Shown: in pieces, positions 11,274 through 63,223 of the stretch | Layout: each line of letters opens with the position of its first letter | Position numbering within the stretch: position 1 is the stretch's first letter | Assembly (NCBI GenBank): GCA_964627935.1 | Contig: CAZVLB010000017.1 | Location: 6,853 to 70,852 of the forward strand | DNA from: an uncultured Ignavibacteria bacterium | GTDB lineage: Bacteria > Zixibacteria > MSB-5A5 > JAABVY01 | Length of the DNA: 64,000 nt | Direction: 5' to 3' | Translations under genes and position numbers: made by a program | The notes under the pieces: generated by a model | Database searches by the model: none | Told to the model about the DNA's origin: nothing | Seen by the model: the letters and a program-made list of their open reading frames with translations, nothing else

Positions 11274-11404
11274 TGGATTTAGAAAACTGACTTTCCCCGA
11301 CACCCTTATAAACCGCCCGAATTTTAATTAATCACTGTTTGTGTATTTACGTCTATTTTTCGGGTTGATAATTTTTGTTTTATAATATCCAAGGAGCGTG
11401 CCCC

Positions 11405-11719
11405 ATGCATTGCAAGAAAATTTTAATTTTCACTGTTCTGCTCCTGTTCCTGGCTGTCAATTCTGTCCCATTGATTGCCTCTGATCGTCCGATGCAGGAT
11501 CCGACGATCGAAAATGCTCATAACAATGAGGCGGATGGCGGCGGTGGTGGTGAGGAACACCCCTGGCAGGACAATGATGATGACGATGATGGGCTTTTCA
11601 ATTACAAGAAAGGCTTGCAGTATCTGATCAGCCTGTTTACCAGAGACAAAGAGGCCGACCAGAAACCCGAAAGGTCCAAAAAGGCCGAACCGGTCAAGAA
11701 ATTTGATAAGAAGAAATAA
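11405..11719 (+). CDS. Small exported protein (104 aa), candidate signalling pro-peptide
   Basis: AAGGAG RBS; signal peptide MHCKKILIFTVLLLFLAVNSVPLIA; low-complexity GGGGG-EEHPWQD-NDDDDD segment; Lys-rich tail. Confidence 0.75.
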   Translation: MHCKKILIFTVLLLFLAVNSVPLIASDRPMQDPTIENAHNNEADGGGGGEEHPWQDNDDDDDGLFNYKKGLQYLISLFTRDKEADQKPERSKKAEPVKKFDKKK

Positions 11720-11736: not shown

Positions 11737-13965
11737 ATGAAATCAATTAGCGCGACAGAATTAGCGGAGCAGGCGGTTATTTCGATCAGGGCCGCAATTG
11801 AGGAAGGCGACTACAAGGGCGCATTGGCCGCCCTGCGTGAGGCCGAATCTCAGGACAGCGGAGTGCTGGAAAATTCACCCCGTTTCCTGGAAATGAAGGC
11901 CCGGATCCTCAATTTGATGGGCGATTACGGTACTGCCCTGGATGCCGCGCAATCCGCCTATAAGCTGGCTCGTTCCGGAACGGACAATGATCTGATTGCC
12001 CGTATCCAGACGCAAACAGCCAAGGCCTATCTGTCGCTTGGTAAAACCGAGCAGGCTGAACGGGAATACGGCGATGTTATCGCCTCTTACCGCAGGTCAG
12101 GCAATGTCGGCGGTATCATAGATACATTAAACCGCCTGGCCCAGATCAACTTTATCGAATCCGATTTTGAGCGGGCCGCACGGGTACTGAATGAAGCCCT
12201 GGAATATGCCCGTCAAAACGGCCTGACCGACAGAATTGCCAAGCTGACCGGAAACCTGGGCCAGATTGCCAGTATGCTGGGCGATTACGATCAGGCGGTT
12301 GAACATATCGGCATATCGATCGCAAGAAATGCCGAGATCAAAAATTTCCCCAACCTGTGTCGCGCCTATCTATCATTGGCTTATGCGGAAATTCGCCTGG
12401 GCAATTTCGATTCTGCCCGCAAATCATTGCATAGAGCCGAGAGATTGATAGAAAAACATAACCTGACCCGTGAATACGGTATCTTCAATGAATACCTGGC
12501 CGATCTCGAATACGAGGTGGGCAATTATGATCAGGCGCTCGAGGCAATCAGTAAGACACTCGAACATGCCTATAAGCTCAGTGCCGCTTCCGCGCTCATT
12601 TCTCAGGGAGAGAGATTGAAGGCTGAAATACTACTCCAGAAGAATGACCTCGATGGGGCACGCAAAGCAGCCCGGAGCGCATTGGAAGTTGCCGAAAAGA
12701 TCGGTGAAAAGCTGGAAGCCGGTTCGGCCAAACGAGTACTGGCCGAGCTGGCCTCATTGCGACGCGAGAACCAGAAATCGCGGGACCTGATCTATTCGGC
12801 CATCGACCTGATCAAGGGCAGTTATGCACGCCATGATCTGGCCCTTGCTTATGTCTCGGCCTACCGTATTCATCGCGGCAATATCGGCCAGTCACAGTAT
12901 TATCTGCAGATGGCGCGGGAGTTGTATTCGGCTATGGGGCTTGATTTTGAGCTGAATCACAGTGCATCGCATAAGCAGTCCGAGGAAACCAATTATGAAA
13001 TCGCCAGCTCAGAGGGCGAAATCATCAGCATCATAACATCAGACCGTCGCATGAAAGCTATCATGAGAGCGGTTGACTCGATCAAGGATTCAGATATTCC
13101 AATCTTAATCGGCGGCGAAACCGGAACCGGCAAGGACCAGCTGGCAAAATATATTCATTATTCCTCCAAACGAAGGAGCAAAAATTTCATTCCGGTCAAC
13201 TGCGCCGCGATACCTCATGAACTGGCCGAATCCGAGCTGTTCGGGCATGTCAAAGGGGCCTACACAAATGCCGTGCAAAACAAAGATGGCCTCATAGTTG
13301 CGGCCGATGGGGGAACGCTATTCTTAAATGAGATCGGCGAACTCTCGCCTGCTATACAGGCCAAACTGCTGGGCGTGCTTGAGAATAAGAGAGTTATGAG
13401 GATAGGCGATCCTAACCCGCGCGAGGTTGATTTCAGGCTGATCTGCGCCACAAATCGTGATCTCGAAGAAGAGGTGCGCGAGGGCACATTCCGGCAGGAT
13501 CTCTATTTCCGTATTGCCGTGATGACATTCGAACTTCCGCCCTTATCGCAGCGAGGCGATGATCTCTTTGAGCTTATTACACATTTCCTGAGGCAGCATG
13601 GTTTCGAGGTAAATCTGGAAAAAGATTTTACTTCAAAAGAGCTCAGGTCCAAACTTATGGGCTATGACTGGCCCGGCAATATCCGTGAATTACGCAATGA
13701 GATCAATCTGCTGGCGCTTTCATTCCCGGGAGATACGCATAAGGTTCTTGAGGAGCTGGCCTCCAAGCTGTCCGATGAAGCCAACCAGGCCAAGGTGGAT
13801 CATGATGCCGGCCTTGCCGACCAGATCAACGCCTTTGAGAGGGGCAAGATTCTGGAGGCTCTGGCACAGACCGATTATGTTATCCGCCAGGCAGCATCTC
13901 ATCTCAAGATGCCGGAGGCTACCTTGCGTTCGAAGATAAAGAAACATAATATTATTATTGCGTAG
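11737..13965 (+). CDS. TPR-domain sigma54-interacting transcriptional regulator (bEBP)
   Basis: ~400 aa TPR-like helical repeats; Walker A GETGTGKD; ESELFGH; GAYTNA (GAFTGA variant); FRQDLYFR; WPGNIREL; Fis-type HTH. Confidence 0.9.
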   Translation: MKSISATELAEQAVISIRAAIEEGDYKGALAALREAESQDSGVLENSPRFLEMKARILNLMGDYGTALDAAQSAYKLARSGTDNDLIARIQTQTAKAYLSLGKTEQAEREYGDVIASYRRSGNVGGIIDTLNRLAQINFIESDFERAARVLNEALEYARQNGLTDRIAKLTGNLGQIASMLGDYDQAVEHIGISIARNAEIKNFPNLCRAYLSLAYAEIRLGNFDSARKSLHRAERLIEKHNLTREYGIFNEYLADLEYEVGNYDQALEAISKTLEHAYKLSAASALISQGERLKAEILLQKNDLDGARKAARSALEVAEKIGEKLEAGSAKRVLAELASLRRENQKSRDLIYSAIDLIKGSYARHDLALAYVSAYRIHRGNIGQSQYYLQMARELYSAMGLDFELNHSASHKQSEETNYEIASSEGEIISIITSDRRMKAIMRAVDSIKDSDIPILIGGETGTGKDQLAKYIHYSSKRRSKNFIPVNCAAIPHELAESELFGHVKGAYTNAVQNKDGLIVAADGGTLFLNEIGELSPAIQAKLLGVLENKRVMRIGDPNPREVDFRLICATNRDLEEEVREGTFRQDLYFRIAVMTFELPPLSQRGDDLFELITHFLRQHGFEVNLEKDFTSKELRSKLMGYDWPGNIRELRNEINLLALSFPGDTHKVLEELASKLSDEANQAKVDHDAGLADQINAFERGKILEALAQTDYVIRQAASHLKMPEATLRSKIKKHNIIIA

Positions 13966-14174
13966 AAATTAAAAAATCCGACGGTAATTCTTACGGCTTC
14001 ATAATTCGCTTATATTCAACAACTTACATTAGTCATCCCATATTTGGTGATTGCATCGAAGCAAATTCTGCGCTTATTGGATATTTCCCATTTTTAATAA
14101 CCGGCTTATCGTCATCCTGTCTAATATATTGTCTAATAATGGATTAAGCCAGCCGATTGTCAGCATTTGTTTTT

Positions 14175-14190
14175 TGGCACAATGATTGCA
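14175..14190 (+). promoter_or_regulatory. Sigma54 (-24/-12) promoter
   Basis: TGGCAC-AATGA-TTGCA, GG-N10-GC spacing exact; 210 nt downstream of a bEBP gene. Confidence 0.85.
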
Positions 14191-14200
14191 TTATATATGA

Positions 14201-14315
14201 GTGCTTTTATAAGCATGTGAGCTTTTTCTGGGTTACCTCCCTTTTTGAAAGAGTAATTCGGGAGGCTTTGGGCATTAATCCCTTCATCCTTGGCGGAGGA
14301 TGAAGGGATTTTTTT
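14201..14315 (+). ncRNA. Putative sigma54-dependent small RNA (~115 nt)
   Basis: Begins at predicted +1 of sigma54 promoter, 5' hairpin GTGCTT-TTAT-AAGCAT, CCTCCC/GGGAGG stem, ends in intrinsic terminator; no translatable ORF. Confidence 0.6.
14277..14315 (+). terminator. Intrinsic terminator
   Basis: AATCCCTTCATCCT-TGGCGG-AGGATGAAGGGATT perfect 14-bp stem followed by T run. Confidence 0.85.
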
Positions 14316-14319
14316 ATCA

Positions 14320-14348
14320 TTGCGAAACATTTTCCGTTTAAATATCAT
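14320..14348 (+). promoter_or_regulatory. Candidate sigma70 promoter of DUF202 gene
   Basis: TTGCGA - 17 nt - TATCAT. Confidence 0.45.
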
Positions 14349-14378: not shown

Positions 14379-14765
14379 ATGACAATGGATAAACCCGCAA
14401 AAAATTTCAAGGGCTGCGAAAAGCCTAACGAATCAGAGATTATTGGACGGATTACCATGCTCCTGGCGGCCAAACGAACATCGTTGGCTGTGCTCAGGAC
14501 CGGAATAGCAATCCTTACCCTGCCGTTTTCGGTTGTAACTGTTTTGATTGCAACATCCAAAAGCTATGAATTTACCGAAAACCTGCTTTTCATTATACCT
14601 TTGATGGCTCTGAATACCCTTCTGGTTGCGCTGAGTATGTATCTTATGGCTCGTTCCATATTGCGCATCCATAAAATAGATATCCTCATTACCAAATTGA
14701 AAGAGGAGGATCCCCAGGTCATGAAAACCACTGACTGGGAGCATGAGCTTACCGATGTGAAATAA
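14379..14765 (+). CDS. DUF202-like small inner membrane protein
   Basis: LAAKRTSLAVLRTGIA motif followed by two TM helices. Confidence 0.65.
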   Translation: MTMDKPAKNFKGCEKPNESEIIGRITMLLAAKRTSLAVLRTGIAILTLPFSVVTVLIATSKSYEFTENLLFIIPLMALNTLLVALSMYLMARSILRIHKIDILITKLKEEDPQVMKTTDWEHELTDVK

Positions 14766-60776: not shown

Positions 60777-62396
60777 CTGAAGCTTATTCTGGGACTTCTG
60801 GTCCTGGTGATGCCGCTCGTGGCATCGGGCCAGATGGTGAATACTATTGTGCTGGATTCGCACGAGGAGCTGGAATACCTGTTCCAAAGCGGGCAGATCG
60901 ATGCCGAGCAGTATCGTGTTCTGGATGAACTGCTCAATTCCATGCCTGTCACCCAACGGTATTTCCATGATGATTTAATGCGTTCAGTCCGCCAGCAAAA
61001 TGAGTTTCTGGAAATCGATCTCGAGGATACGATCGAAGTCGAAGCTGCAGAGGATCATCAGGATGGATGGCTTACCGGATTTGACAGCCGGGTGAAATTC
61101 AGGCTGTATCATGATCTGGATCAGAAAAGCCCGTACCGTGAGTATTTCTCCTATTCCGGCAATTCAGAGCAAAACCTGTCATTATATATCGAAGCCGAAC
61201 GTCATGAGAACTGGAACGACTATTATCTCAGGCGACGGCACCTGGATTTCAGGCGGAATCGCTTCAAAATATCTGCCGGGAATTTTGCGCCTGACTGGGG
61301 TATGGATGTATCATTGGGGTATCCGGCAGATATCCTGCATAAATCCGATGATCCGCTGTATCAAAGTGTCCTGTTTCCATCAAGGGGCAGGTATAACGGC
61401 CTGATGATAAGTCATTCGTCGAACTACAATCCAACTATTCTTTTCTCCTATGACAGATCTCGAAGTAATCGCTCGAGATTGGCCGCCGGTATGTTCGACT
61501 ATGGAAATCAGGATTTTCATGGAGGCTTGCTGGTTGGGATTTTCAGGCTTGATGATCCGGGAGCAGGCAACCAATTCGATTCATATATCACATCAGGTTA
61601 TCTGGCATTGACACGGGGCAAAACATCATTTGAGAGTGAGTTTTCGTTAATCGATATTAAATACCCGGCCTTCAATGCCGAATTGTCCAGCCGTTATGAA
61701 CGCGCCGGGATACGGATAATGGCCTGGAATTATCATCGTGGATATGTCAATCCCTATGGCTCCGGACGAGCCAATCCCGATTCACGCCGGATTTATATCG
61801 ACAGCAATGAACTGAATTATACCAGCAGGCATAATGGCGAATACGGATTACTCCTGCGAACAGACATTTATGATATGCATGGCCATAATCCGCAGATCAT
61901 GGCCAACTACTGGCGAGACGGCATCGAAGAGGAAAAAGTGCGTATCAGGATGGTTGACCGTTATGCTATATCTTCAAGAATCGATGCCATGCTGACATAT
62001 CTATGGGGGAATGATAATCTCGATGATGCAGGTTATGGAGATCGTCAGCATATCAGGGTTGACCTGAATTATAAACCTGCGCGCAGGCTTCGATTTCGAA
62101 TTTCAGCCGAGGCTCGTCGGGTTTACTACTCCTATGGCAGACGGGATTACCTGCGCGGTGAAGCCAGGTTTGCATTTCCGATAGACGATGATATTTCGGT
62201 CTGGTTCAGGTTCAGCCGGATTGACAATGACCTGGCGGATGGTTCCCGCGGATACTGGCTGATCTACCTGGGGGAAAACATGGCGCTGGGTGATAGCTTT
62301 TACCTGCGAGTATCGATGTCGACCAGAGAGGGAATAAAATATAATATGATAAAATCAGCGAGGCTTAACCTTCAAATCATATGGACGACAAGATGA
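60777..62396 (+). CDS. Hypothetical exported/outer-membrane beta-barrel protein (likely CTG start)
   Basis: In-frame signal peptide (M)KLILGLLVLVMPLVASG begins at CTG 60777; Tyr/aromatic-rich alternating strands; C-terminal LQIIW. Confidence 0.6.
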   Translation: MKLILGLLVLVMPLVASGQMVNTIVLDSHEELEYLFQSGQIDAEQYRVLDELLNSMPVTQRYFHDDLMRSVRQQNEFLEIDLEDTIEVEAAEDHQDGWLTGFDSRVKFRLYHDLDQKSPYREYFSYSGNSEQNLSLYIEAERHENWNDYYLRRRHLDFRRNRFKISAGNFAPDWGMDVSLGYPADILHKSDDPLYQSVLFPSRGRYNGLMISHSSNYNPTILFSYDRSRSNRSRLAAGMFDYGNQDFHGGLLVGIFRLDDPGAGNQFDSYITSGYLALTRGKTSFESEFSLIDIKYPAFNAELSSRYERAGIRIMAWNYHRGYVNPYGSGRANPDSRRIYIDSNELNYTSRHNGEYGLLLRTDIYDMHGHNPQIMANYWRDGIEEEKVRIRMVDRYAISSRIDAMLTYLWGNDNLDDAGYGDRQHIRVDLNYKPARRLRFRISAEARRVYYSYGRRDYLRGEARFAFPIDDDISVWFRFSRIDNDLADGSRGYWLIYLGENMALGDSFYLRVSMSTREGIKYNMIKSARLNLQIIWTTR

Positions 62397-63223
62397 AATA
62401 TGTTTGGCTATTCTTTGTTAGCATAATTTTATACTCAGCTGTCTTGTCGGGCCAGGTTGTTATCTCAGAATTCATCCCTGATCCGTCAGATCCGCTGGAC
62501 AGCGAATGGATCGAGCTTTTCAATCTGTCCGATCAAATAATTGATTTATCCGCATGGTCACTCTGTGATCTGGTGGGATGCGCTGACATTTCCGATATAA
62601 ATATCGGCCCCTCGGAATTTCTGATCGTCTGCCAGGACATCACGTCCTTTAAGGCATTTTATGATCTTGATGACGGCTCAATAATCGAAGTCGATGGCTG
62701 GCGGGCTTTGAATAATGGCGGCGATGCTATTGTCTTGAGGGATAATCAAGGCCATACCGTAGATTCTGTTTTTTATCAATCCGGCAATGGCAATAATATC
62801 TCATGGGAGCGAATCAGCTATGACGCCCCCGGCTATGATCCGGCTAACTGGCATCAGTCGCTCGATCCGGAAGGCTCCACACCCCTTGCTGAAAACTCGG
62901 TTGCGGGCGGATTTGCCACTGATGTGCGTTTAAATCTTACTGACAAATTATTTTCTCCGGGTTGCGATTGTCCTGATGATCAGCTGGCCATCGAAATCGA
63001 TTTGCCGCGTGATTGTTTGGTATCGCTTTATGTCTATGATCTTGAGGGCCGCATGATCGGGACAATTGCCGAGGAGAAAGCTGTGTCTGCAACTGTTATC
63101 TACTACAATGGCCATGATGATGCCGGGATATTTCTGGATGTCGGCATGTATATCCTGCTGGCCGAGGTTGACGGGGAATGTTCATATTCGCAAAAATTAG
63201 TATTCGGGGTGGCAAAAAAATGA
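62393..63223 (+). CDS. Lamin-tail-domain protein with C-terminal FlgD-like Ig (sorting-type) domain
   Basis: VVISEF..DP..SEWIELFN, LNNGGD.I.L, TP.AENS, FSP..D, VYDLEGR, GMYIL. Confidence 0.8.
   Translation: MKYVWLFFVSIILYSAVLSGQVVISEFIPDPSDPLDSEWIELFNLSDQIIDLSAWSLCDLVGCADISDINIGPSEFLIVCQDITSFKAFYDLDDGSIIEVDGWRALNNGGDAIVLRDNQGHTVDSVFYQSGNGNNISWERISYDAPGYDPANWHQSLDPEGSTPLAENSVAGGFATDVRLNLTDKLFSPGCDCPDDQLAIEIDLPRDCLVSLYVYDLEGRMIGTIAEEKAVSATVIYYNGHDDAGIFLDVGMYILLAEVDGECSYSQKLVFGVAKK

Follow-up and report, generated by a model that had tools for sequence, protein, structure and literature searches.

The pairing of an activator gene with a sigma-54-dependent non-coding RNA is an arrangement known from luxO and qrr1, from cbrB and crcZ, and from glmY and glrK. 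The Qrr small RNAs (sRNAs) of Vibrio (RF00378) depend on LuxO and sigma-54, and qrr1 lies beside luxO. OmrA and OmrB of Escherichia coli stand under OmpR, are not known to be sigma-54-dependent, and need Hfq, and in these respects they differ from the RNA treated here. That RNA is predicted on the forward strand of a 64,000-nt stretch of DNA (contig CAZVLB010000017.1, positions 6,853 to 70,852, of assembly GCA_964627935.1), referred to below as the window, which comes from an uncultured bacterium assigned to the Zixibacteria. It is about 115 nt long (14201–14315), its ends being deduced from promoter spacing and a terminator, and it follows the gene of a sigma-54 activator, or bacterial enhancer-binding protein (bEBP). 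We consider it quite probable that this segment gives rise to a real, stand-alone, sigma-54-dependent sRNA.

The likeness to the Qrr RNAs covers a size of about 100 nt, a sigma-54 promoter, a terminator of its own, a place beside the activator gene, and action by base pairing, which is predicted here, and in a sister family the copies may in addition exert feedback on the mRNA of the activator; the differences are that no Rfam threshold is reached, that the activator carries a TPR sensor and not a receiver domain, that Hfq was not found, and that the predicted target is an anti-sigma gene. A similar layout, with a sigma-54 promoter and a non-coding RNA behind an activator gene, is described for Desulfovibrio vulgaris, where sigma-54-dependent non-coding RNAs lie directly downstream of the enhancer-binding protein genes DVU0653 and DVU0679, whose regulons were assigned to post-transcriptional regulation; that organism belongs to another phylum, its two activators are two-component response regulators, and the likeness is one of layout (PMC4641369). 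The regulatory logic that we propose below, in which sigma-54 acts through an sRNA and an anti-sigma factor on a second sigma factor, is found in Campylobacter jejuni, where the RpoN-dependent sRNA CJnc230 (FlmE) directly represses the anti-sigma factor FlgM and raises late, FliA-dependent flagellar genes such as flaA; unlike the RNA in the window, CJnc230 arises by processing of the flgE mRNA 3' end, targets a member of the FlgM/FliA pair and not of an extracytoplasmic function (ECF) sigma pair, and is not linked to an activator gene (PMC11187230). OmrA and OmrB share with our proposal the lowering of anti-sigma synthesis, since they inhibit the synthesis of FlgM (PMC7549644). A literature search on small RNA in Zixibacteria found no regulatory RNA of this phylum; the RNA represents a new family, and its proposed circuit would be novel in the phylum, the general arrangement being already known.

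The intergenic gap between the activator gene (11737–13965, forward strand) and the next gene (14379–14765) measures 413 bp and contains a promoter, the RNA stretch of about 115 nt, and a hairpin followed by a T-run. The sigma-54 (−24/−12) promoter (14175–14190, forward strand; TGGCACAATGATTGCA) is an exact match to the consensus TGGCAC-N5-TTGCW, reading TGGCAC-N5-TTGCA, and it is the single exact match in the window, where sites with at most one mismatch number three against 2.19 expected by chance; in the 3.75-Mb genome, the exact consensus occurs seven times, versus three for a reversed control pattern. The spacing from this promoter places the predicted +1 near 14201, as the original prediction had it, and the genome encodes rpoN (Sigma54_DBD, 192.5 bits, on contig C7). 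The activator protein consists of an N-terminal MalT-like TPR sensor region (TPR_MalT, 1.7e-24), an AAA+ sigma-54 interaction domain (Sigma54_activat, 3.2e-64), and a C-terminal Fis-type helix-turn-helix (HTH_8, 1.3e-6); a Pfam search of the protein found no receiver domain, and its nearest named record is a Candidatus Zixiibacteriota metagenome-assembled genome (MAG), at 71% identity. Across 13 activator orthologues, the consensus of the loop that contacts sigma-54 reads GAFTNA, the canonical form being GAFTGA.

The activator orthologues fall into two families, the one to which the window genome belongs (f1) and a sister family (f2), and a third, more distant group. Our f1 sample comprised the window genome (G000), four more from its genus, and a single one from another genus of the family, and all six copies share one layout: the activator stop codon, a spacer of about 200 nt, the promoter (T/C)GGCA(C/T)-N5-TTGC(A/G), an RNA of 112–119 nt, a terminator, and a DUF202-like gene. 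The GG-N10-GC elements of the promoter are preserved in 13 of 13 f1/f2-type copies, namely seven of f1, including a metagenome locus (L264), and six of f2. Ahead of the promoter lies a candidate activator-binding site, or upstream activating sequence (14061–14072, forward strand; GCAAATTCTGCG), which is nearly palindromic and follows the pattern GCA-N5-TGC(G). Its GCA-N5-TGCG motif stands exactly at −114 relative to the first base of the −24 element in every one of the six f1 genomes and 120–132 bp ahead of that element in all six f2 genomes; among 48 loose sigma-54-like sites in the window genome, a motif of this type occurs within 300 bp upstream at the RNA promoter and at one other only.

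The RNA segment itself folds strongly, with an energy of −45.4 kcal/mol for 14201–14316 (z = −4.5) that none of 200 shuffles equaled. A 5' hairpin at 14201–14216, as originally proposed, appears in the single-sequence fold; the middle hairpin (14236–14265, forward strand), in which CCUCCC (14236–41) should pair with GGGAGG (14260–65), has both hexamers at these positions, and the consensus fold of relatives pairs them, the single-sequence fold showing a shifted register at this point. The intrinsic terminator (14277–14315, forward strand) was likewise found by a terminator scan, with a stem of 15 bp (14277–14310) and not 14 bp as first described, a loop with GGCGG, and a T-run to 14315. Across seven distinct sequences, 95.8% of cells in the modeled structure are paired, and compensatory changes occur in 9 of the 12 modeled terminator pairs; in the middle stem, 95% of cells are paired, and its changes are one-sided (C-G to U-G), all on its 5' arm, with no compensatory pairs. 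For the whole 24-pair structure, none of 500 shuffles equaled the observed covariation, and the signal was lost when the pairing partners were slid. The RNA copies also differ by insertions and deletions of one or two bases, which argues against a conserved reading frame. A small-peptide reading was checked by eye and rejected in both families: f1 copies have no ATG, GTG, or TTG 5–10 nt past GGGAGG, and in f2 an indel in G009 and compensatory stem changes break the frame that begins at an invariant ATGG. A search of Rfam 15, including Qrr, GlmY, and CrcZ, gave no match at the gathering threshold across the whole window, and its sub-threshold list (E ≤ 10) is noise, with a best score of 22.3 bits against a threshold of 51. 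Because of the exact promoter, the strong fold, the terminator scan, and the absence of an Rfam family at threshold, we regard the observation of a ~115-nt non-coding RNA with its own terminator as confirmed at the level of prediction.

A covariance model built from the six f1 copies recovers all of them (E ≤ 1e-18 in 6/6 genomes), and over 151 genomes of the class it gives no credible match in the 145 non-f1 genomes; weak hits in G149, G143, and G033 proved to be CCCCCTTT-type repeats and were discarded. BLASTN in 41 genomes (40 relatives and the window genome) matched only the terminator half within the family. A pattern scan of metagenomes matched 92 stretches, and among the 80 loci examined, the covariance model accepts three, two of which score equal to G002 and G003, the third being L264, a new and more divergent f1-type copy that has an exact sigma-54 promoter of its own and lies ahead of a DUF202-like gene. 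The RNAs of the sister family were located only by way of the activator orthologues, by searching with the TPR region alone and reading the downstream DNA; a search with the full activator alignment was dominated by AAA+ paralogues and gave only three useful loci (L073–L075). Behind each of the six f2 orthologues, whose TPR regions show 39–41% identity, come a sigma-54 promoter, an RNA, and a terminator, with the promoter about 230 nt past the activator stop codon and the RNA about 120 nt long, carrying the invariant boxes UGGUUGGCUC and AUGGUUUUGGGCG; in a joint alignment, GGYUUUGGGC immediately 5' of the terminator is common to both families. The comparative check downstream of homologous TPR-type bEBPs thus recovers the promoter-RNA-terminator unit in 6/6 f1 and 6/6 f2 genomes. 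Because the unit tracks the activator in these 12 genomes of two families and the downstream gene differs between them, the RNA belongs with the activator and not with the gene that follows, and the predicted stand-alone product, as opposed to a leader, is supported.

In the third group (four genomes of family f5 and the loci L074 and L075), a GGCA-N6-TTGC promoter and a structured, activator-linked RNA occur in all six loci examined, with RNA sequence and downstream context unlike those of f1 and f2. The loci L067, L069, L071, L072, L074, and L075 of this group show a first hairpin, GAAUCCGCCCGG...CCGGGCGGAUUC, without a T-run, followed in four of the six (with a variant in L067) by a second conserved C/U-rich block, GTTCTTGCTTCTTTCAGATCGGGTTCACTTCAAA, and a proper terminator; the block was not seen in the stretches examined of L074 and L075. 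As judged from these sequences, the third-group RNA may be about 250 nt long, and the candidate activator sites of the group read GCGTGAGATTTCACGC. In G037, no activator-linked unit was found, and in G040, the promoter is present with a different downstream sequence.

The part of the RNA that we propose as its target-pairing region is the core CGGGAGGCUUUGGGC (14259–14275, forward strand; followed by AU in the window genome), which consists of the 3' arm of the middle stem and the adjoining linker, is invariant in the six-sequence f1 alignment, and is present in L264. In the fold, its 3' portion (UGGGCAUU) stays unpaired. The core is G/U-rich and unable to pair with Shine-Dalgarno (SD) sequences. 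Exact complements of the core are not enriched in the genome, and most of them lie inside open reading frames (ORFs). In the five f1 relatives, sites for a 10-mer complementary to the core numbered 14, 7, 11, 26, and 7 against control counts of 4, 11, 2, 10, and 7, i.e., not consistently above control, and part of the excess in some genomes arises because a dispersed repeat contains the same 10-mer. This repeat carries a short palindrome, GCCCAAAGCCAGTTTGGGC(A/G)TGCCACCC, and its copies include the loci L155, L156, L160, L164, and L181 (G001, G003, and G004), with similar copies in the window genome at C19:10985 and C21:39565/39772. Loci were obtained for 30 of the 65 sites in the relatives, and clustering these 30 contexts with the sites of the window genome left two homologous contexts and no others, one at the RNA gene itself and one at the start codon of a single gene, the latter shared by G000, G001, G002, G003, and G005.

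That gene, the predicted target, lies outside the window on contig C10 of the same genome (from 62807) and encodes a 76-aa anti-sigma-like protein as the second cistron after an ECF sigma gene (62224–62793). Complementarity with the core extends over +1 to +20 of the 76-aa gene, as 18 bp with a 2-nt bulge, the predicted duplex in the window genome being UCGGGA and GGCUUUGGGCAU with AUGCCCAAAGCC-UA-UCCCGA. The site is present in all six f1 genomes with two substitutions only, both compatible with pairing: GCC to GCU in G004, which gives a G-U pair, and A to U in G005, within the bulge. Between the window genome and each relative, the first 25 nt of the gene are identical at 24–25 positions, against about 52% for the rest, and where the amino acid is invariant, all six genomes also use the same codon in 6 of 7 columns among the first eight codons (one of these being ATG) and in 1 of 16 columns further on. 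The target site ranks third of 12,343 start-region windows of the genome when these are scored by RNAduplex energy against the core region. When the cost of opening the RNA's own stem is included, co-folding gives a net −14.7 kcal/mol for the target, and in a background of 400 windows with an SD and an ATG (mean −5.8, standard deviation 2.7), one is as favorable. All 12 cognate pairs of RNA and target in the two families co-fold favorably (−10.0 to −27.9 kcal/mol), mostly more strongly within a family than across families.

The first gene of the target operon is an ECF sigma gene (Sigma70_r4_2, 1e-15; Sigma70_r2, 6.1e-14; Sigma70_ECF, 1.1e-10), and a gene of this kind lies upstream of the 76-aa gene in 11 of 11 other loci examined; the CsgG-like gene that follows the operon is not conserved nearby in the relatives. 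The tentative anti-sigma assignment of the 76-aa protein draws on a Pfam zf-HC2 match below the cutoff and on modeling the protein in complex with the adjacent sigma factor; its alignment shows a YLDGEL...F...L pattern that we take to be typical of anti-sigma N-terminal domains. The complex model scored 0.79 against 0.00 for the best control, a mark that 58 of 80 solved complexes reach, as do 2 of 110 mismatched pairs. The three runs of the model share at least 84% of contacts, the partner has a predicted local distance difference test (pLDDT) score of at least 84, and both the sigma-2 and the sigma-4 region are contacted. A homologue of the 76-aa protein turned up in 5/5 f1 and 6/6 f2 genomes and in 0/9 genomes of other families, a distribution that matches that of the f1/f2-type RNA and that shared ancestry could also have produced.

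Taken together, these data lead us to lean, with modest confidence, toward the full proposal of a stand-alone, trans-acting sRNA with an anti-sigma target, in which the TPR-type activator and sigma-54 would drive an sRNA that represses an anti-sigma factor and thereby releases an ECF sigma factor. The activator would bind GCA-N5-TGCG about 114 bp ahead of the promoter, as the DNA sequence suggests, and would drive sigma-54 RNA polymerase from the −24/−12 promoter, with transcription being stopped by the RNA's own terminator. The core UCGGGAGGCUUUGGGCAU would then pair with +1 to +20 of the anti-sigma-like second cistron, as complementarity and conservation suggest, so that the start codon is covered and anti-sigma translation blocked, the sigma cistron of the bicistronic mRNA still being translatable. 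With less anti-sigma factor, the ECF sigma factor would be freed, and a signal sensed by the TPR region would pass from sigma-54 to the ECF sigma regulon via an RNA. Pairing may instead have the opposite outcome, namely decay of the whole operon mRNA. The unit is a compact circuit, in which a sensor-activator is combined with a single promoter, a single RNA, and a single predicted 20-nt target site, and it can be tested outside its uncultured host. If the target is true, sRNA control of anti-sigma factors, hitherto a matter of flagellar FlgM, would link sigma-54 to an ECF sigma factor in a distant phylum, and the unit would provide a handle on the role of TPR-type sigma-54 activators that have no receiver domain.

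A number of observations weigh against this proposal. The RNA's own stem ties up most of the core (CGGGAGGCUU), leaving only UGGGCAUU free to initiate pairing, and Hfq was not found in the 98.7%-complete genome, so that no RNA chaperone can be named. The sigma-54-contact loop of the window activator (13240–13260, residues ~507–512) reads GAYTNA, versus the canonical GAFTGA. The target was picked by complementarity, and its statistics come from crude start-site calls and not from a validated predictor; two start-region windows outrank it by RNAduplex, 12-nt matches to the core occur at two further places in the genome, and, with 30 of the 65 10-mer sites inspected, other conserved targets may have been missed. 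The conservation of the first eight codons could stem from protein function or from constraints on translation initiation and not from RNA pairing. As for the protein, its Pfam zf-HC2 match is below the cutoff (14.3 versus 22.2 bits, E = 0.046), its profile against PDB sequences gave no anti-sigma match and only spurious helical ones, and the complex-model pass is ambiguous because sigma/anti-sigma complexes have already been solved: it may reflect likeness to those and not this pair specifically.

The sister family belongs to the same side of the account in part. The predicted contact in G007, G009, and G011 is between UCUCUGGUU and AACCAGAGA, within the SD region of the homologous gene, and that in G006 and G008 is between GGCAUAUAC and GUAUAUGCC, at the start codon, so that different RNA segments serve in different genomes. 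Chance helices of such G/U-rich RNAs are long, about 9 bp on average. The longest helix measures 19 bp in G007, which none of 200 shuffles reached, and 13 bp in G011, which 4 of 200 reached; the corresponding values are 11 bp and 19/200 in G008, 11 bp and 27/200 in G006, 10 bp and 37/200 in G009, and 8 bp and 183/200 in G010. The f2 evidence is thus mixed, since the longest helices clearly beat shuffles in some genomes and not in others. A wider version of the proposal is held more tentatively, as a possibility with somewhat less in its favor than against it: the RNA would be the sole direct output of its activator, would silence the anti-sigma cistron and activate the ECF regulon, and would have co-evolved with its target across an order of the Zixibacteria, the contact moving between the start codon in one family and the SD region in the other, with feedback on the activator mRNA in f2.

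The stand-alone sRNA has to be weighed against a terminator-gated leader of the DUF202-like gene, in which sigma-54 transcription would usually stop at 14315 and conditional read-through would reach the gene behind it. We consider this improbable. The gene (14379–14765, forward strand) encodes a DUF202-like membrane protein whose Pfam match to DUF202 (20.4 bits) is below the cutoff of 23.4; it lies on the same strand after the RNA in 7/7 f1 copies, which suits a leader, as does the condition of its separate sigma70-like promoter (14320–14348). The latter had been offered as an argument for a stand-alone RNA, and that argument is weak: it is a 9/12 match to the consensus, and eight such matches are found in 2.5 kb against 4.6 expected. 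Constant association with one downstream gene, which a leader would show, is not what the two families display, the homologous unit preceding an FKBP-type lipoprotein gene in 6/6 f2 loci and other sequence in the third group. That the RNA tracks the activator across families is the main argument against a leader; the 15-bp terminator stem with its T-run, for which a by-eye check saw no conserved alternative pairing that would disrupt it, and the invariant core, which a trans target explains better, point the same way, and the DUF202-like gene is probably outside the unit. An equally unlikely reading would keep the original idea of an anti-SD tract as the working part, with the C-rich sequence UUACCUCCCUUUU serving as a seed that blocks the SD sequences of several mRNAs. 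CCUCC is present in 6 of 7 f1 copies, and binding of a target to the GGGAGG arm would open the stem and free the C-rich arm. The tract is, however, a paired and variable stem arm (CUUCCC in L264, CUCCUCC in G005) that has no counterpart in f2, the invariant part being the opposite arm with the linker, and it lies outside the predicted duplex, in which the conserved target is contacted at its start codon by the G-rich core and not by an SD-blocking tract; the sequences thus support neither the tract as the working part nor its mode of action.

Less probable still is an RNA that binds or sequesters a protein through its G/U-rich boxes and GGCGG loop and not by mRNA pairing. Two G/U-rich boxes and the G-rich terminator loop are conserved in both families, and activator-linked sigma-54 RNAs do include protein sponges, such as CrcZ; against this, the motifs are two or three and short, they form no repeat array, no candidate protein presents itself, Hfq was not found, and the conserved complementarity at a start codon favors base pairing. 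The alternative to which we give the least credence has the RNA chiefly feeding back on the mRNA of its own activator, as Qrr RNAs do on luxO. In 5 of 6 f2 genomes, GCCCAAAA(CC), or a variant of it that wobble pairing would tolerate, lies between about +13 and +30 of the activator mRNA and is complementary to the invariant f2 RNA box GGUUUUGGGC, and the site is kept in two reading frames, encoding Ala-Gln-Asn in G009 and Ser-Pro-Lys in G008, G006, and G010 (loci L061–L066). G007 lacks the site, none of the six f1 genomes has one near the activator start, and the third group gives inconsistent results. For the window, feedback on the activator mRNA could at most be an extra function seen in relatives, as far as the sequences suggest, next to the trans-acting role at the anti-sigma cistron that we prefer.

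Some further features of the surroundings and of the genome may be added. A locus in a record titled as a Methanosarcinaceae MAG (L084) contains a paralogue of the TPR-type sigma-54 activator, followed by a promoter-like site, TGGCATGATTCTTGAT, and a gene; the contig may be bacterial contamination of an archaeal bin. Within the window, a small ORF (11375–11719) ends 18 nt ahead of the activator start codon and may be co-transcribed with the activator gene; it encodes 114 aa with no Pfam match, in which an N-terminal hydrophobic segment is followed by acidic and Lys-rich stretches. Many of the roughly 48 sites of the window genome that fit the loose sigma-54 promoter pattern have an SD and a signal-peptide-like gene start 30–100 nt downstream, a pattern that points to an extensive set of exported proteins under sigma-54 control in this organism.

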